A stretch of 64,000 nucleotides of DNA. Source: Sphaerodactylus townsendi (taxonomy: Eukaryota). The DNA lies in contig NC_059427.1 of assembly GCF_021028975.2 (NCBI RefSeq), forward strand, positions 125,178,001 to 125,242,000, given 5' to 3'. Below, in pieces: positions 2,465 to 13,279 of the stretch (positions are counted from its first letter, which is position 1; every line of letters begins with the position of its first letter). The notes under the pieces are model-generated. The model was given only the letters and a program-made list of their open reading frames with translations, did no database searches and was not told the DNA's origin. Position numbers and translations under genes: made by a program.

Positions 2465-4922
2465 TCGGGGAGGCGAGAGCGGGGGCGGCATGGCTCAGCC
2501 TCCTCGCCGAGCACCCCAGCACCCAGGAGCGAGCGAGCGAGCGAGCGGGCGGGGGTGGGGGCAGCAGCAAGAGACGGCGGCACCCCGCTGGAAGCCGAGA
2601 CGCTGCAAGATCCCGAGGCGGGAGAGCGGAGACGCTTCTTAGACGGGAAGCTCACCTGCCGCATAGGTGGCTCCCGCGAGCAGTTTTGGGACGCCAGTTT
2701 CTGAGGCCAATAGGACGCTTTGGAAGGGATGCCCCAAATTGGATGCCCGGTTTTGAACATCCCTTCCAAAGCGAGGAGATGCCAGGCTTGCCGCCGGGAG
2801 CGAGCAAAAGTGGCAGCCACCCCCAAGCGCTCCGTCCACCGTGACTTGGCCAGAGGTTTAGCCGTGGCGTCCCCCTTGCCCCCTGGGTTTCTGTGACCGC
2901 TCTGAAAAGTCTCTGGGGTCAGGACTCAGTTGGGAGGAGGGCGAGGAAGCGCGTGAGGTGTTTTTTCAGATGCCTTCTCATACAACGGGCTTAGTATGGG
3001 TTGGCTTCGTTTTAAGCAATTACCCCATGGGGTGAGTTTCAGGGGTATTCTCAGACACCGTTTGGCTCCCTACATTGAGTTCAGGGCACTCAGAACCGCA
3101 ACCAACTTGCGAGAACGAAGCTCAGTGTCAAAGAGAAAGCTCTTCCTGCTTCCCCAGCCTGATTACCTGGGGAAATTGAAACACTTAGGGCGTGCAAAAG
3201 ATGCGATTTAGCGATTTTTACCTGGCTAGGGCAAAGCAAGATCCCAGTGCGTCTTAATAAGCTACCAGTAACCACAAAATAAACAGATTTTTTTTCAGCA
3301 AGGTGTAGAATTTATTGAGGGCAGGGGAACTGAAAAAGTTTTCTTCAGCATGTGTGTATGAAAATAAGAGAAACTGAAAGAGAATCAAGCCAGAGGCTGA
3401 AGCAGGGAATGGCTAGAGAAGAGGGGAGTGGGTTGAAGTTTGGGAAAGCAGAGGTTTTAAGAGAAAAAGAGTTTGCCTATCCTCAGTCTGGTGAGCTGGT
3501 TAGGGTAGGTAATCTGTTTAGATGACCCAGAGATTCCATGTAGGGACCTTTAGACAGAACTGCCCAAGGATTTGCTGATTCTAGGATGCAAGCTCTGAGC
3601 CAGCAGAAGGGTAAAACTGCACAATTTTGGCTGACAAAACAGTGACAGTTGTACACGCTGGCAAACACACAAAAAAATCAAATAATCGTAGAGTCCAGGA
3701 ATTCACAGTGAGAATCTGCAGCTTTGAGTGAATTGTGGAGGAGGGGGCTTCCTGGAAAGAAAACAGCAGGTACAAAATGCAATCATGGTGAACAAAAGGG
3801 CTGTCAGGGTGGAGGCTTCACCTATGCCTGAGGCAGATTGGGAGGGACCCTTCAGACAAGGTCAGTAAGATCAATCAAGTTGTGACAATCAAGACCCCAT
3901 CTTGGTGATGAAGGCAAAGTCAGCATGCAGATGTCCCATCCATGAATCCCCCCACCCAAGTTGTCCACTTGCTAGCATAGCCTGAGGAGAGCCAATTTAG
4001 CCAAGATGAAGTTGAGGAAGACGGCACAGAGTTAAAAGAATTTCAAAATCTTTTCACCATGCAAGCTTATTTAGATGCATTTTAATGACTATAACTCCAG
4101 GACCAGGTACATGCTGGTTAATCTAAGATAAATTATTTAGACATTTAAACCCTACTTCCCACCCCCAATGGGGCTCACAGCCATTTTATATGTGTGTGTG
4201 TTCTGAAGTTCTTTTATATATATGACATATACATAGTTAAAAAGAATTGAGCAATCTTGAATTTGCTGCTTTTTTGGGGGAATCTTATCAATTTCTCAGC
4301 TTTTCAGGATCATGCAGTTCTGTTGTTTTCCTGTCTCACTATCTCTGTTTCCTGGTTCCCCCCACCCCTTGATGGTCCAGAAAACTGCCCCCTTGCTGAA
4401 GAAGCAGGCAGACAAGGATGGAGCATTTTATCTTGGGTTGCAATTTGTAGAATTAGGTACATGCAGACCCCACAGCAGTAGGTGAAGAACCTGGATCAAA
4501 GTCTAGTGTGTTTTTTACTGCCCTCTGGTGCTGTTTTCCAATTGTGCAGGCTGTTATTTGAGCGAAAGGCTAGCTAGCCCATCTGGAAAAAGACTTCTAC
4601 CCCTGAATATTTTACAGTGGGGTCGGGGATATGGTGCAGGACACTTATATGAAGCTATTGCACAAAAAAACCTTGTATGTATTGAACTCCTGTTAATTTT
4701 AATGGGATATCGATGAATGTGTAATTGGAACTGTGCAATGTGAAATATTCATGACCATGCATAAAGATTAACTTGCCAGATTTCAGATGCCTTGGTAGTG
4801 CTGGCTGTATAGAAAACTTTGGCAGGTGACTCAGTAGGGATCTGCAAATAGCAAGAAACTACAATATGATCAGTTTCACTTAGTTAAACGTTTGTGTGTG
4901 TGTGAGGGATAATTATAGGGTA

Positions 4923-5837
4923 CTAGCGGGCCCGGCCACACGTTGCTGTGGCAATTGTCCTCATCACAGTCCGCAACCCACACAAATGTCCATGCAGGAC
5001 CAGTGATCCCCAGCATAGCCTTTTGGGGTGGTCAAATAGAATCCCTCTTTCCCTTTTCAATGCACATTGTTATAGGGTGCTGTCTTTTTTTTTAGTATAA
5101 GGTAACCCTTTTTATTCTACAACAGAACTATCCAGAGTTCGAATCCCGCTGTCCATGAGGCTGGTTGACACGCACAGTCCTGGCTTGGGTAAGGCAGAAC
5201 TGGGGCAAGCAGGCTATCCCAGTCAGGCAGCAGAGGCAGGGTGGTGAGGCGCTCAGATCGAGGCCAGCTCCCTGGGTTCTTAGAGGGCCATGTGCAAAAG
5301 AAGTGGAGCCAGTAGTGTTGGTTCGCCCCCACCTCGCAGATTGTCTTAGAAGAAAAAGGCAAACTCCAGCTCGTTTTTAGTAAAAGAGAGCTGTGGCGAA
5401 TATGGGTGAGGAAGTGGGTAAGTGGTGGTTGGATGTGCGGGAGGGCAGAGTGAGGTGTGTGAGGATGAGCTGGATGAGTATTGTGTGGTAGCAGTGGGTG
5501 AGGCACAGAGAGTGAAAGTTACCTGCATGTGAGGGGGGAACCCCACCTGACGTGTCACACAGCAAAGTGTGTATGTGTTTCACTTCCACTCGTATTACCT
5601 AACAGTATTGCCTATTTACTGTTTTCACTGCTCATCTCTGCCCATCTGCACGAACATTCTAAGCCCTCATACCAAGCCCTCAGGCCACAGACAGACAGGC
5701 TGCACGAACATTCTAAGGGTGACAGTTGAACACAAACAGCTTCATGGCCTAGTGCGCCAGGAAAAAGACATTTTACCTGCCTCAGGTATGGACTTTCGGT
5801 GATTTGAAGGTCTGATTACCTGCCCGCAACAGGGAGA
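4923..5837 (-). mobile_element. Non-autonomous Helitron copy A, 3' portion (interrupted by the ERV)
   Basis: The minus strand ends in hairpin GCCACAGCAACGTGTGGC, then about 8 nt, then CTAG|T. It is a near-identical inverted match to copy B (10659-12297). Confidence 0.85.
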
Positions 5838-6296
5838 TGTAGGGGTGAGCCCACGAACCCAGCAGAACCGTAGAAGGAGCGCCAGGTATGCCTGTGCCGG
5901 CTACGGCCTTCCGGGCGCACACGCTCCCCCAACCCACGCTCCCCCATGAGTCACGGGTCATGAACTGCCTGACTCGCGGTCACCAGGTGTCCCATACAAA
6001 GGGACAAAAGGGCCCCTGCCCTCAGGTGAAGATTAGACCCAGACACGGATGCTCCCTCCCGCACGTAGCAGCCCAATGAGATCATGCATCACATGATGAT
6101 CTCCCGACCTCCCGTTCTCCCGCCTGCCTGACCCCCTTACACGCCCCCATTGAAACCCTAATAAAAGGTGTGAAGGGTGAGCGCACGGCAGAGTTGCCAG
6201 GATCACGGGATCCCACGTTTCCTGCCACTGGCTCTCTCCACCAGATGAAATCTCCACGTCTCGTCTCTTCATTGGGGCCTCGTGGGCAAGACTACA
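5838..6296 (+). mobile_element. ERV 5' LTR (459 bp)
   Basis: TGTAG...CTACA termini, followed after 3 nt by a PBS. A second copy lies at 9447-9881 on the opposite strand. AATAAAA (TATA- or polyA-like) at about 6160. Confidence 0.92.
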
Positions 6297-6299
6297 AGC

Positions 6300-6317
6300 T
6301 GGTGCCGAAACCCGGGA
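6300..6317 (+). promoter_or_regulatory. Primer binding site complementary to tRNA-Phe
   Basis: TGGTGCCGAAACCCGGGA is the reverse complement of the 3' 18 nt of vertebrate tRNA-Phe(GAA). Confidence 0.88.
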
Positions 6318-6494
6318 ATCCTCGAACCTCCGCCGTGACTTACCGTCGCCTGGAAAAGGGCTTCTCGGTACCGATCGTCCGCTGGATTGGCGCATCCAGG
6401 GACCCACCCCCTCGGTACCGACCATCCGCTGGATCGGCGCATCCAGGGATTCGCGTTCCAGGACACTCTCTCATCTGACGAACCACCGGTAAGC

Positions 6495-7944
6495 ATGGGC
6501 GCTTGTAAAAGCACGGCTTTTGACAAGCACGTTAGCGAGCTGAAAGCGCTAGCGAAACGCGGCAGGGTCTCCGTAAAGAGAGGGGAGCTGCACGAATTGG
6601 TTGAGGAGATTGATAGGCAATGTCCATGGTACCCAGAAAGGGGGACATTCAATCTTAAGGACTGGGAAAACATCGGGCGCACTCTGCACAGAGAGCCTCG
6701 CGTGCCGATGTCGCTGCTACTGACGTGGAGACAGTGTTATGTCGCCATCAGCCTGCAGGTCCCTGGTGTCTTTGCCATGGATCTCCCTCCTTTTGATCTT
6801 TCACCTTCAATTTCAAGCCCGGAAGTTTCTCTATCCACTAAGCAGGAAGCCTGTCCTTCTCCCGTTTCAAACTCTCCCGCTCGTGCTCTCGCGGCCCTGC
6901 CGCCTCCTCCTTCTGCTCCGCCTTCTGCTCCGCTTCCTCCTCCCGTTTCTAAAGCCACCGCACCTCCGTCAATGCCACGTAATGGCACGAGTTTCAAAAC
7001 TCTAGCAGAGCGTATTACCCACGATCTGCAGAGGAAGGAAACCCTGACGGAAGACGATGCTGATCTCCTCGCCGTCTGCCCAGCCCACTACACTGACCAC
7101 GGGGAGGACGGCGTCATTCAGCGAAGTCGCTTGAGTATCGCCCCATAGGCTATAACGTTCTCACTGAGCTCCGCAAGGCAATACGGGACATGGGGATCAC
7201 CAGCCCCTATGTGAGAGGCATGCTGGAAGCAGTCATACGGAATCACGTAATGGTTCCGGAGGACTGGAAAACCACTTTTCACATGCTCTTGAACCCTGCG
7301 CAATATGTTGTTTGGGAAAGCGAATACTGCCAACAATGCATAAGCAGAGGGGCAGCCTCTGGCGGTGCCTATACTGCCGCGCAGCTCTATGGCTGCAAAG
7401 GCTTCGCCCTTCCCGACGCGCAGATCGTCCTGCCGTTTGTAAGAGTGCCCGCTGCCGGACAGCCAACCCAGAGCTTTTCCAACGTTCGGCAGAAGCCTCA
7501 GGAGCCTTACGCTGAATTCCTGAACAGGCTCCAAGAGGCCCTGCAGAGACAAGTTGACAACGATGCAGCCCAACATGAGCTCCTCATGCGCCTCGCCAAA
7601 GAGAACGCCTTTGCTGAGTGCCGCAGGGCGATCACGGGCTTAGGGAAGAACCCCGAACTGGCCGACATGCTTAAGGCTTGCCAGGATATCGGATCTTCCG
7701 CCCATCAGGCCAGCCTCCTAGCCGCAGCACTCTCCACCACCTGGGGGCAGCCCCAAGACGAGTGCTTCAACTGCGGCAAGCGGGGACACTTCCGGAGGGA
7801 CTGTAGGTCACCCGGTGGGGGGCTTACAATCCCGACGGAGGGGGGTTCTCCCCTGGGAGACGAAGGCCCATAGGAAAGCCCCGGACCAAATGCCCCCGAT
7901 GCCAGGAGGGCTTTCACTGGAGAAGCGAGTGCCCGTCGGGAAAC
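6495..7944 (+). pseudogene. gag: Betaretrovirus-like gag (MA, late domain, CA, NC) with frameshifts at about 7130 and about 7820
   Basis: MGACKS myristoylation start. Class II MA motif CPWYPERGTFNLKDWENIG. PSAP twice. Major homology region SFSNVRQKPQEPYAEFLNRL. Zinc knuckles CFNCGKRGHFRRDC and, in another frame from 7891, CPRCQEGFHWRSEC. Confidence 0.92.
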
Positions 7945-8711
7945 TCTTACCCGGGCCTCTCCCCAGCCCAGGACCAAGGAGGAGAATACTAAACCAGCCC
8001 CGAGAACCAAGGCCCGAACCCAAACCACCGCCTCCCAGCGGTATCTCTCTCTCCTGTACCCAACCTCTTTCTCTCAAGTTCCCCCATGAGATCCTCATTG
8101 CCCCGACCCAGTACAGCGATCCCATCCCCCCAGAGGCCGTCGGGTTAATCTTGCCCAAAGCCTCCGCCACTGAGCAGGGACTGTTTGTCGTCCCGGGAGT
8201 CATCGACTCCACACACCAAGGAGCTGTTCACATTCAGGTGTGGACAAACATCCCGCAGGAGTTGCCCAGCAGAACCAGCTGCGCACAGCTGATCCTCCTG
8301 CCCCACACGCTGCCTGCCGCCGATTCAATAAAGGCCACGAGCCCAGATCGCCATCGGGGCACAACCGGCACCACCGTGGCGGCGGTAGAAAAGCCCATTG
8401 GTAGCTCCCGCCCGTACCTGGAGCTCACTATAGAAGGGTGTCCATTCAAGGGACTTGTGGACACCGGCGCCGACGTAACCGTCATCAGAGCAGCCGAGTG
8501 GCCTGATCAGTGGCCAACCAAGGCTTGCCCGCGCATCTGGGGGGTGGGGGGGAAGCAGACCGCGAGACGGAGCACCTGCCCGCTCACAGTCCGCAGTCCA
8601 GGGCTCGAGCGGCAGCTCACAGTCCGCCCCATCATCTTGGACATCCATGTTAACTTGTGGGGAAGGGATCTCATGAGTCAAGTAAAGACGACTCTAGTCT
8701 GGGATGGATAA
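7938..8711 (+). CDS. pro: ERV pro ORF: dUTPase-like domain plus aspartic protease, reached by a -1 frameshift
   Basis: Slippery heptamer GGGAAAC at 7938-7944, with pro in the -1 frame relative to the second zinc knuckle. dUTPase-like GLIL...VVPGVIDS...AQLILLP. Protease motifs LVDTGADVTVI and NLWGRDLM. No stop codons. Confidence 0.88.
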   Translation, partial: GKLLPGPLPSPGPRRRILNQPREPRPEPKPPPPSGISLSCTQPLSLKFPHEILIAPTQYSDPIPPEAVGLILPKASATEQGLFVVPGVIDSTHQGAVHIQVWTNIPQELPSRTSCAQLILLPHTLPAADSIKATSPDRHRGTTGTTVAAVEKPIGSSRPYLELTIEGCPFKGLVDTGADVTVIRAAEWPDQWPTKACPRIWGVGGKQTARRSTCPLTVRSPGLERQLTVRPIILDIHVNLWGRDLMSQVKTTLVWDG

Positions 8712-9112
8712 ATCCACTCCCGCCATGGCCGCTACCCAGAAGAAGAACAGATAGCAGTGGGCCACGTTGAGATCCCTACCCCCCAGCTCTGACTGTGTTT
8801 CCTACCTCCACCCCAGAGCCCCCGCTCTGGAACACCCTCTTTCTCTCTCACTTTGTTCTATTTTTTCAACCAGCAAAGGCGGGAGGGCCAATTGGCTGAC
8901 TGGCCCTCCCTGGATTAAAATCTGGGCCCATCCTGGTACCGCAGCACTGCCAGGACAGGCCCCAAGTTAAGGGGAGGCCGCCGCCATCTGCACGTACTCA
9001 CAACCTGTTTGGGTTGTGGTCGCCCGGTGCATGGCGTCTTATTCGGCGCCTGGCAACTCTACCAATACCATGTCCAAGGCCAGGCGCCTAGCCGAAACCG
9101 CCCCTTAAGGAG

Positions 9113-9217
9113 TGGTTCACCAGATAAGCCTCTGCCACTCAGGTGGAGGAGTTTGGAATCAGACCAGGTTCTCCAGATCAGAATAGACCTACTCTTAACC
9201 ACTACCCCATGTTGGCT
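9113..9217 (-). mobile_element. 5' half of a tRNA-derived squamate SINE (inverted)
   Basis: The reverse complement reads GGTAGTGGTTAAGAG...CTGGAGAACCTGGTCTGATTCC...GGCTTATCTGGTGAACCA, matching the head of the intact SINE at 44026-44321. Confidence 0.8.
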
Positions 9218-9348
9218 TAGCAATTTGACTTCATACACACACAAACACGAATTTGGTTCTCTGCACTGTAGAAAAAGGAGCATAATTTAGTCTTTTCTGT
9301 TCTGTGCCCTCTGAATTGGGCAGCCACTTTTAATCTGAGATGGGATCA

Positions 9349-9446
9349 TCTATATATATATAAATCTAACAGTGTGTTTGTCCCTGATGGTCTCCCCCAG
9401 AAGCTGCTGGACGGTTCACCCCCAAATTTTCACAGGATGTCCCTCC
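9349..9446 (+). mobile_element. Helitron copy A 5' end, displaced and inverted
   Basis: A|TCTATATATATA... matches the first 100 nt or so of copy B. It stops at the ERV insertion point. Confidence 0.85.
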
Positions 9447-9881
9447 TGTAGTCTTGCCCACGAGGCCCCAATGAAGAGACGAGACGCGGAGATTTCATCT
9501 GGTGGAGAGAGCCAGTGGCAGGAAGCGCGGGATCCCGTGATCCTGGCAACTCTGCTGTGCGCTCGCCCTTCACACCTTTTATTAGGGTTTCAAATGGGGG
9601 GCATGTAAGGGGGTCGGGCAGGCGGGAGAGCGGGAGATCATCATGTGATGCATGATCTCATCGGGCTGCTACATGCAGGAGGGAGCATCCGTGTCTGGGT
9701 CTAATCTTCACCTGAGGGCAGGGGCCCTTTTGTCCCTTTGTATGGGACACCTGGTGACCGCGAGTCAGGCAGTTCATGACCCGTGACTCATGGGGGAGTG
9801 GGGGTTGGGGGAGCGTGTGCGCCCGGAAGGCCATAGCCGGCAACAGCATGCCTGGCGCTCCTTCTACGGTTCCTGCTGGGT
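9447..9881 (-). mobile_element. ERV 3' LTR, inverted, missing about the first 19 nt
   Basis: Reverse-complement match to 5857-6296, with scattered substitutions and one short indel. Confidence 0.92.
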
Positions 9882-10032
9882 GACCTTGGCCTAGTCACAG
9901 TTCTTCGGAACTCTCTCAGCCCCATCTACCTCACAAGGTGTGGGGAGAGGAAGGGAAAGGTGCTTGTAAGCCACCTTGAGTCTCCTTACAGGAGAGAAAA
10001 GATGGGGAATAAATCCAAATTCTTCCTCCTCC
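9870..10032 (+). mobile_element. 3' half of the same SINE
   Basis: CTGCTGGGTGACCTTGGCCTAGTCACAG...GTCTCCTTACAGGAGAGAAA...AAATCCAAA tail, matching the 3' half of the other SINE copies. Confidence 0.8.
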
Positions 10033-10658
10033 GATTTTACAGAAAATTTTGCAGAGAGAATTGCATCTGAAATCCATCAGGTCCTTGTATGTTAAGATGT
10101 GTGATTTAGCAGCATAGAAACCAACTTAATTTTATATTACCACTTTGGATGAGACATTTACAGTGCAATCCTAAGAACACTTTCCTGGGTGTAAGGTTCA
10201 TTGAATAGACCTGTGTCGGATTGAAAGTAGACCTGCTTAAGATAGTTTTGTAACATACTCTAGCAACATCTGCAGAGTGGAAATGGGAGAATGGATAATG
10301 CACAGAACCTTTGTTGCTGTGCATATATCAAATTAGTTGAAACCTTTTGGTAAATGAAAACAGTGAGAACCAGTCTCTAGGTTATATTGAACTTCTCTTC
10401 AAAGCTATATACTCACAAAGACAGAAGTTGCTTAGGACCAAAGCAGATGTGATGGATTTAGAAAGATGCAACTGTGAATCACTGAGCTGTTTTTTCTTTG
10501 CTTCATAACAGCCAAAGAGATTGCTCATCTGATAATTGTCTAAATGGTTTTTACACCCCAAACCTCATTATTAGCCCTGAGAGAAAGTGTCTTTTCTTCT
10601 GCAAATCTTTTCTCCTACTTTGAAGTAAAGAAATTGTTGGGATCGTAGATCTCCCCCA

Positions 10659-12297
10659 TCTATATATATATAAATCTAAACGTGTGTTTTTGTCCCTGAT
10701 GGTCTCCCTCAGAAGCTGCTGGACGGATTGTCCCCAAATTTTCACAGGACGTCCCTCCCTGTTGCAGGCAGGTAATCAGACCTTCAAATCACTGAAAGTT
10801 AATACCTGAGCCAGGTAAAACGTCTTTTTCCTGGCGCACTAGGCCATGAAGCTGCTGTGTTTAACTGTCACCCTTAGAATGTTTGTGCAGCCCAGGGGTC
10901 CCCAAACTACGGCCTGGGGGCCAGATGTGGCCCCCTGAAGGCATTTATCTGGCCCGCCAGGCATGGCAGCGATTGCTCCATTCATGTGCAGTGGGGGCTC
11001 GAGGGAGAGGAGGAACTGGCCCCAACGGCTGTTGATTGCAGTTACATGATGGCACCCCCAAATCTCCATGCATTTTCTGACCCAGAGTTGGAAACCTTAC
11101 ATGTGGCAATGCCTGCTCCGCCCTTCCCTCTCGGCTACTCCATGTGTTGCTCTCAGGCTTTCTGTTCCGCCTCACTCCCATTGGCATCAGCCAGGCTGGC
11201 GAATCGCTCACTGGCTGCTAGGGAGGAAAGAACCCAGGAAGATACCTGATCCTGGGTTAGATGGAATGCTTCATTGGGAAAGTTCTGCATTTTTTTTTTT
11301 TTACAGTGGAAGATATTCCACAGCCTCCCCAACAATATTTGGAGCCCACCCTGTACTTGACATACTTTGGTCACTGTTCTAAAAATAGACCATGACAGAA
11401 AGGCTGAAAGGTGAAATCAAACATTTTACCATCATTTGTGCATAGGAATTTGTTCATAGTTTTTTTTAGTCTGGCCCTCCAACAGTCTGAGGGTCAGTGA
11501 ACTGGCCCCGTTTAAAAAGTTTGGGGACCCCTGGTGCAGCCTGTTTGTCTGTGGCCCGAGGGCTTAGAATGTTCGTGCAGATGGGCAGAGATGAGCAGTG
11601 GAAACAGTACATAGGTAATACTGTTAGGTAATACAAGTGGAAGTGAAACACATACACACTTTGCCGTGTGAGATGTCAGGTGGGGTTCCTCCCCCCACAT
11701 GCAGGTAACTTTCACTCTCTGTGCCTCACCCACTGCTACCACACAATACTCATCCAGCTCATCCTCACACACCTCACTCTGCCCTCCCTCACATCCAACC
11801 ACCACTTACCCACTTCCTCACCCATATTCGCCACAGCTCTCTTACTAAAAACGAGCTGGAGTTTGCCTTTTTCTTCTAAGACAATCCGCAGGGTGGGGGC
11901 GAACCAACACTACTGGCTCCGCTTCTTTTGCACATGGCCCTTTAAGAACCCAGGGAGCTGGCCTCGATCTGAGCGCCTCACCACCCTGCCTCTGCTGCCT
12001 GACTGGGATAGCCTGCTTGCCCCAGTTCTGCCTTACCCAAGCCAGGACTGTGCGTGTCAACCAGCCTCATGGACAGCGGGATTCGAACTCTGGACAGTTC
12101 TGTTGTGGAATGGAAAGGGTTACCTTATAAAACAAGACCGCACCATACAACAATGTGCATTGAAAAGGGAAAGAGGAATTCCATTTGACCATCCCAAAAG
12201 GCTATGCAGGGTAGTATTGGACCTGCATGGACATCTGTGTGGGTTGCGGACTGTGATGAGGACAATTGCCACAGCAACGTGTGGCCGGGCCCGCTAG
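10659..12297 (+). mobile_element. Non-autonomous Helitron copy B (complete)
   Basis: 5' A|TC and 3' CTAG|T termini, no TSD, subterminal hairpin at 12268-12285. Confidence 0.88.
10893..11533. mobile_element. hAT non-autonomous element nested in Helitron B
   Basis: TIRs CAGGGGTCCCCAAACT / AGTTTGGGGACCCCTG. Perfect 8-bp TSD GTGCAGCC. Absent from copy A. Confidence 0.9.
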
Positions 12298-13279
12298 TTG
12301 ATATTTATGTCGCTTTCCAGCAGAAATGGGAGAGAGGCTTTATCAGGCAGTGCTGATTAGATTACACGTCACAGATTGCAATTTTCCTGAAATCTCTTGA
12401 AACATTTGAGAATCCCAGAATGCTTGAAAGGTACATAAAAAGAAAACATATTTCATACACATAACATGATGCAGGTGGCATGGGGAGGCGCAAATGCCAG
12501 AAACTCCCCAGCCACCTGAAAGTCCTTCATCGGCCAAAACAGCACCTAACACCACAGGCTGGGATGATACTATCCTAAGATTTGAACCTGGCTTTTTTTT
12601 TAGCTGTAGGAAATAGCAAGGATCCAGTAGCACCTTCAAGACTTAACAACATTTTAAATGTTTTGTTGCTTCCAGCCTGATAAAGAGTCCTGGCGAGGTG
12701 TGCACAATGTTTTGTTTTATGTCATTTGGTCTGTCCTCTAAACATATTACATGATTGTGTTTCTTTTTCTGGATTTTTCATGGCCAACACAACCAATCAC
12801 ACCTTTAAAAAAAACAACCTCAGGTCAGCAACACAACACAACACTCTTGTAGATCAAAATGTTCTGTACCTTTCTGAATACTGCCATTTTTGATGTGGAC
12901 CATGTATCCTTTTCCTGCTTGTCTTACCTGCTTGTCAGAAGGGCATTTTTGATGGTATACGAATACATAGATAACATATATATTTCTTTCACCTTTATGA
13001 TGGAGAAAATTTTCCTTTAATAATGGTCAGAAAATCCTGTTCCTATTGTCAGAATCTAATAAGATCTCCAAGGTCCTGCAAGATCTCCAATGGAGGTGGG
13101 CAGGAGATCTCTCCACCCTGCTCCTCACTCCCCCTGCCATGGCAGCTAGAGCTAGGTTTCTGCAAGGCTTTGACAGCTCCTTCACTTCCTTCCATAGCAG
13201 GGGAACATGTAGGAAGGGAAACCAGAGCCCAGGGCAAAATAGTACACAGGCCTGTCTGCAGCAGCTTCACTTCATGCAT

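Follow-up and report, generated by a model that had tools for sequence, protein, structure and literature searches.

In a vertebrate survey, inversions and duplications made up less than 0.2% of the reported structural variants (PMC13320814). Among 1,019 human genomes, 159 of the 733 catalogued non-MEI inversions were listed with one adjacent deletion and 12 with two, and the authors ascribe inversions with deletions to replication-associated processes, e.g. MMBIR (PMC12350158). Endogenous retroviruses (ERVs) with LTRs in opposite orientations have been described as well. HERV-K124 is reported to carry truncated LTRs that are inverted relative to its 5' LTR; LTR inversion combined with template switching was proposed for it, and LTR inversion is called rare in that report (PMC3625200). 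The same report cites Hughes and Coffin 2002, on an ERV-related element resembling a DNA transposon, for the mechanism of LTR inversion (PMC3625200).

Here we describe a provirus with inverted LTRs in the gecko Sphaerodactylus townsendi. The window that we analysed is a stretch of 64,000 nucleotides (RefSeq assembly GCF_021028975.2, contig NC_059427.1, positions 125,178,001 to 125,242,000), and all coordinates below refer to it. In the assembly, a block of about 770 bp is reversed, and this happened after three mobile elements had inserted. The block measures 763-775 bp, has its left edge at 9107-9113 and its right edge at 9875-9881, and is opposed to both of its flanks. It contains most of a 3' LTR, the 5' end of a Helitron-type element, the head of a SINE and about 130 bp of unique flank (host sequence at 9215-9348, with no other match in the window for 9218-9348). 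The orientation of the LTR and of the Helitron breaks against the left flank, and that of the SINE against the right flank. That three elements are flipped over a single interval of this size had been proposed in the initial annotation, and our self-BLAST of 4500-13000 against the window, together with a SINE profile, bore it out. The split elements were checked singly against intact sister copies, and for each of them the two pieces turned out to be complementary. Since the block is reversed relative to both flanks and the pieces complement each other, a single inversion of 763-775 bp accounts for all three elements. One flip suffices to restore the LTR, the Helitron and the SINE together, just as the initial annotation held. 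Our literature search, which was thin on subscription papers, found no published report of this locus.

The 5' LTR lies at 5838-6296 on the plus strand and has TG...CA ends and an AATAAA signal at 6160. The 3' LTR, at 9447-9881 on the minus strand, is indeed antisense to it: positions 5857-6296 (+) match 9881 to 9447 (-), and the AATAAA of the reversed copy is found on the minus strand at 9578-9583. Only the CA end of the 3' LTR is kept, and the equivalent of 5838-5856, i.e. the first 19 nt, is missing. The two LTRs are 93.2% identical over 443 columns of the self-BLAST alignment.

The second element is a non-autonomous Helitron-type copy (copy A). Its body and 3' end occupy 4923-5837 on the minus strand, with the CTAG terminus at 4923-4926, and its 5' end lies inside the block at 9349-9446 on the plus strand, with an A/TC start. 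Copy B, at 10659-12297 on the plus strand (self-BLAST), is unbroken and served as the reference; the body of copy A is 93% identical to it and the 5' end 90%. Judged by copy B, the 5' end of copy A is opposite to its body, as had been noted, and the two pieces abut with an overlap of 5 nt. Both copies begin with TC, end with CTAG and are inserted between A and T. A candidate hairpin in the 3' subterminal region, whose 6-bp stem precedes the CTAG by 8 nt, has z = 0.2. Copy B also holds a MITE (10893-11533), whose terminal inverted repeats are 16 bp long and whose target-site duplication is 8 bp; by these features we take it to be hAT-like. Copies A (4923-5837) and B (10659-12297), 93% identical and in opposite orientation, enclose the whole locus as an inverted repeat pair. 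Such pairs can destabilise forks, and a link of this one to the breakpoints would be conjecture.

The third element is a SINE of about 300 nt, possibly of the Sauria/Squam1 family. A profile built from the three intact copies in the window matched the head inside the block from 9209 to 9115 (model positions 14-110, E 2e-17) and the 3' part with the tail outside the block at 9870-10029 (model positions 137-300, E 2e-36). The head thus lies on the minus strand (9113-9214) and the tail on the plus strand (9872-10031), in agreement with the initial annotation. Numbered on an intact copy of 307 nt, the head stops at position 111 and the tail begins at 138. Compared with the copy at 60 kb, the junction lacks 22-26 nt of the SINE (26, or 14+8), a loss that had previously been missed. 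The head is 75-83% and the tail 83-87% identical to the intact copies, which are 86-90% identical among themselves. By this divergence the split SINE may belong to another subfamily, and the true microhomology may differ by a few bases. Because the split SINE has diverged, the sequence before the break, the exact microhomology and the exact loss are uncertain. A search by eye for a target-site duplication of the SINE found none, and no tRNA family was among the six weak Rfam hits obtained in looking for a tRNA-derived head.

The overlap between the two Helitron pieces gives the order of events. The 5 nt shared by the pieces in copy B coordinates precede the TG of the left LTR (4/5 matching) and follow the CA of the right LTR (5/5 matching). 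They represent the target-site duplication (TSD) of the provirus, with the left copy at 5833-5837 (+), carrying one mismatch to the target in Helitron copy B, and the right copy at 9442-9446 (-), now within the block. Since this TSD flanks both LTRs, one integration made both of them and the flip came afterwards. TSDs of class II ERVs are typically 6 bp long; the one found here is 5 bp with one mismatch.

The LTR pair differs by 19 substitutions in 432 columns (K2P 0.046). Eleven of the 19 differences are at CpG sites, six of them decayed in the right copy and five in the left. This means that the LTRs aged separately and that the assembly did not produce one by duplicating the other. With the yearly rates of 3.17e-9 and 1.96e-8 given for the Texas banded gecko (PMC9995274), the LTR divergence translates into an insertion age of 7.2 or 1.2 million years; the rates are borrowed from that gecko and CpG decay inflates the estimate. 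The provirus thus inserted roughly 1-7 million years ago, which is an upper bound for the age of the inversion.

By resemblance, the provirus is like a class II (beta-like) ERV that has gag and pro only. An 18-nt primer-binding site, which we assume to be of the tRNA-Phe type, is found at 6300-6317 (+), immediately downstream of the LTR. Three bases (6297-6299) lie between the CA of the LTR and this site; two are more usual in beta-like viruses. By eye, the leader upstream of gag contains a duplicated stretch of about 45 nt at 6360-6450, downstream of the primer-binding site. The gag region (6495-7873, +) runs over two reading frames with a break near 7.14 kb, and Pfam recognised Gag_p10, the N and C domains of p24 and a CCHC knuckle. 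It is followed by pro (7722-8711, +), with a dUTPase and then an aspartyl protease by Pfam. In the ORF at 7722-8708 the dUTPase spans aa 98-216 and RVP aa 229-325, which places the dUTPase between gag and the protease. When compared with solved structures, the capsid had HERV-K Gag among its top matches, and the top matches of the protease were 1nso/3sqf, presumably the M-PMV protease. The nearest match in a capsid search of representatives was 56% identical.

Downstream of pro lies an internal remnant (8712-9106, +) that lacks a polypurine tract at its end and in which neither a pol nor an env domain could be recognised. Pfam detected no pol, env or RT domain in any of the eight stop-free plus-strand pieces of at least 26 aa at 8690-9110, and neither a PDB search with one 26-aa piece nor tblastn with a snake ERV protein detected pol or env remnants. 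A few codons past the pro stop resemble a motif that we take to open a beta-like RT. By eye, the remnant also has a splice-acceptor-like sequence at 8830-8874, where a run rich in pyrimidines ends in CAG. The segment 8967-9108, which ends at the left junction, can be drawn as a stem-loop. Folded as RNA it gave z -1.3, with 21 of 200 shuffles as good, and as DNA z -2.5 (3/200 shuffles), a weak value for a region that was picked after the repeat had been seen. With folding scores this weak, we dropped the stem-loop as a fork-stalling trigger and as an RNA export element.

A fragment of the dUTPase is 91% identical (53/58 aa) to a part of the RefSeq KIF17 protein of S. townsendi (P0005), and this protein evidence points to at least one further copy of the ERV family. 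The N-terminal 79 aa of the KIF17 model contain pieces that match both gag and dUTPase of this family. They may reflect exonisation, or a gene model wrongly drawn across a sister provirus. A search for a full-length sister polyprotein returned only the KIF17 protein, which is weak evidence of absence.

The two junctions differ in what they retain. At the right junction (9875-9881) the LTR and the SINE share an exact microhomology of 7 nt, and the 7-nt word is common to the left LTR (minus strand) and to all three intact SINE copies. A match of at least 7 nt occurred at random junction pairs with a frequency of 0.00057-0.00083 (200,000 pairs for each of the three copies), so the microhomology at this junction is above chance. 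The initial annotation had placed a shared LTR/SINE word at 9873-9881; the word is present, and its exact length is 7 nt rather than 9, as 8/9 positions agree over the longer interval. A longer inverted similarity between LTR and SINE at this junction was not above chance, being equalled by 504-644 of 5000 random 40x40 windows. The longest in-window repeats across the right boundaries are 9 nt (at 9872) and 15 nt (at 9881). Compared with the left LTR there is also an additional C at about 9872, for which we have no explanation.

At the left junction (9107-9113) the interior of the provirus meets the SINE head, which lies on the opposite strand. No purine run of at least 9 nt was found between 8978 and 9112. 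The absence of such a run means that the polypurine tract expected before the 3' LTR was lost together with 19 LTR bases and some of the interior; the earlier reading of a junction without its polypurine tract and first LTR bases therefore stood. The longest in-window repeat across the left junction is 10 nt. An imperfect palindrome (9096-9117), with 9 of 11 possible pairs and a fold z of -1.5, is centred on the junction, at 9106/9107. Depending on the mismatch penalty, this palindrome was equalled by 234, 508 or 1233 of 5812 random 11-centre windows (4-21%), and it is suggestive at most of a fold-back scar. A templated insertion from 4900-12300 was also considered for this junction, and the search gave only matches of 8-9 nt, which we took as chance.

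We propose the following course of events. At the start, a distance of about 130 bp separated a non-autonomous Helitron-type element from a SINE in the interval between ANAPC11 and NPB. A class II ERV then entered the Helitron at a point some 100 bp inside its 5' end and duplicated 5 bp, as the TSD shows. In the assembly, the block that begins close to the start of the 3' LTR and reaches into the middle of the SINE was later reversed. Most likely this took a single event of repair or replication, in which two breaks were joined end to end or a stalled fork switched template by microhomology. Annealing of the 7-9 nt word, present in opposite sense in the LTR and the SINE, would have created the right junction. 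Both ends would have been trimmed in the process, with 19 LTR bases, the polypurine tract and some interior lost on one side and 22-26 SINE bases on the other. A single microhomology-guided event that made the inversion with deletions at both ends is probably the right explanation. The initial annotation had named inversion plus deletion by microhomology-mediated repair or template switching. Its first part is supported by the three split elements and the TSD, and the mechanism we infer from the right junction only.

Three other routes were discarded. NAHR between long inverted repeats would need a similarity that we did not find, as the best local similarity between LTR and SINE was reached by 172-276 of 300 shuffles. 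Twin-priming 5' inversion does not fit a block that extends beyond one element and takes in about 130 bp of flank, the Helitron end and the LTR. An element that ends in inverted LTRs or ITRs is contradicted by the right LTR, whose CA end and TSD are internal (9442-9447).

The main rival to the single microhomology-guided event is a balanced flip, in which a real inversion arose by blunt joining of two breaks and separate deletions followed later. A left junction without measurable microhomology would fit such a course, and the SINE may have lost two separate blocks (14+8 nt). The provirus shows no pol or env domain, so sequence is lost at this locus regardless of the flip, and there would be ample time for deletions in 1-7 million years. 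However, independent deletions would not favour losses exactly at both junctions, and chance would seldom put a 7-nt word at the right junction. We therefore give a balanced flip with later deletions a small chance. The chance of an assembly artefact is slim. A small contig could have been mis-oriented with its gaps collapsed, or a chimeric read could have filled a gap. The public S. townsendi assembly, from which we take the window to derive, is described as made with Supernova, ARCS, TGS-GapCloser, NextPolish and 3D-DNA; it is based on linked reads, and 6.6 Gb of nanopore data were used to close gaps (bioRxiv 10.1101/2021.08.13.456260). Both edges of the block coincide with repeat boundaries (the start of the LTR and the middle of the SINE) and both have lost sequence, and contigs tend to break in repeats such as those that hold the junctions. 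Nevertheless, the window contains no N, no long in-window repeat spans either junction to mislead a k-mer graph, and an artefact would require two false joins, one of them with above-chance microhomology. Homopolymer indels, although counted in small numbers, were not in excess in the block either (1/3 indel events in the LTR pair, 1/1 in the Helitron head and 1/4 in the Helitron body outside the block). The inversion is very likely real and not a product of the assembly.

The shared TSD excludes the readings in which no inversion took place at the locus. The title of Hughes and Coffin 2002 indicates that an ERV relative similar to a DNA transposon has been published, and an LTR inverted during reverse transcription, or inverted as a family trait, could have integrated as such. 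Against this, the integration end of the right LTR (CA plus TSD) points inward at 9447, its outer end is truncated into the SINE, and host flank, Helitron and SINE are flipped along with it; the probability of this reading is close to nil. The region is rich in repeats, which could favour independent insertions of a solo LTR, a Helitron fragment and two SINE fragments that lie in opposite orientations by accident. The pieces, however, are complementary within 5 nt for the Helitron and 26 nt for the SINE, and the 5-nt overlap is the TSD that flanks both LTRs, so that coincidence of this kind is hardly conceivable.

The locus is apparently intergenic, between ANAPC11 and NPB. The neuropeptide B gene lies at 1384-2402 on the minus strand, inside a GC-rich island and about 2.5 kb from the Helitron end. 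Its first coding exon (2109-2402, -) had an S. townsendi protein as its best match (100% identity, 78% query cover), with the next geckos at 79% and 78% identity. On the other side, Pfam, which was run on 148 of the 270 listed ORFs of the window, placed ANAPC11 at 15.6 kb (-), RRM and FoP domains at 20.6-21.7 kb (+) and Rho-GDI at 42-45 kb (+). By synteny, the RRM/FoP ORFs are presumably ALYREF. Rfam at the gathering threshold and ARAGORN gave no hits in the window. Palindromic MITE-like repeats of about 150 nt occur at 28.5, 39.8-40.2 and 46.8 kb, and a repeat of about 195-nt period and mixed orientation at 35.5-36.0 and 50.0-50.5 kb.

In this layout, the sense transcript would have neither a 3' LTR nor a polypurine tract, and the AATAAA of the 3' LTR is on the other strand. 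From what is understood of retroviral biology, this copy would be immobile. Its LTRs are no longer direct repeats and would not collapse to a solo LTR. A selected function is not needed to explain the locus. It is a far-fetched idea, and very probably wrong, that selection has kept the flipped 3' LTR as an antisense promoter over gag-pro, with convergent transcription feeding a dsRNA- or piRNA-type silencer of the ERV family in trans, or as a promoter, enhancer or terminator in the interval from ANAPC11 to NPB. The layout would permit antisense reading: the LTR has its AATAAA on the minus strand, and NPB starts 7 kb away on the same strand, as does ANAPC11. If this were true, a provirus would have been turned into its own suppressor in one step and locked against solo-LTR loss.

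The value of the locus lies mainly in its legibility. Owing to the nested elements and the TSD, the order of events and both breakpoints can be read from one assembly, which makes it a teaching case. It also shows how a provirus can escape both annotation by LTR pairs and collapse to a solo LTR, and, should the un-inverted allele occur in sister species, it could serve as a marker in Sphaerodactylus phylogeny. It opens no new mechanism and tests no long-standing question; its importance would be larger only if the flipped LTR drives antisense or small RNA or affects NPB.

In its gene content, the gecko ERV is similar to HERV-K and Mason-Pfizer monkey virus, with which it shares Gag_p10, the capsid, the CCHC knuckle and a dUTPase before the protease. 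It differs from them in that pol and env were not detected and in a TSD of 5 bp, compared with the usual 6 bp.

Like the human complex inversions as they are catalogued (PMC12350158), the gecko locus has a short block, losses at the junctions and no long inverted repeats at the breakpoints. The human catalogue is built on long reads and a reference allele, whereas the gecko inversion is inferred from split transposons in one assembly. HERV-K124, as it is described (PMC3625200), is also a class II provirus with a truncated 3' LTR inverted relative to the 5' LTR. In contrast to the gecko locus, which has two LTRs and a flip that reaches into the host flank, it is reported to have three LTRs and, besides the first internal region, another that is mostly deleted. 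The element of Hughes and Coffin 2002, by its title and the way it is cited, likewise involves LTR inversion in an ERV; in the gecko, however, the integration end of the right LTR points inward and the LTRs are not terminal inverted repeats. The gecko inversion is thus a further instance of a catalogued, uncommon kind, in line with HERV-K124 as an already described ERV with post-insertion inverted LTRs.
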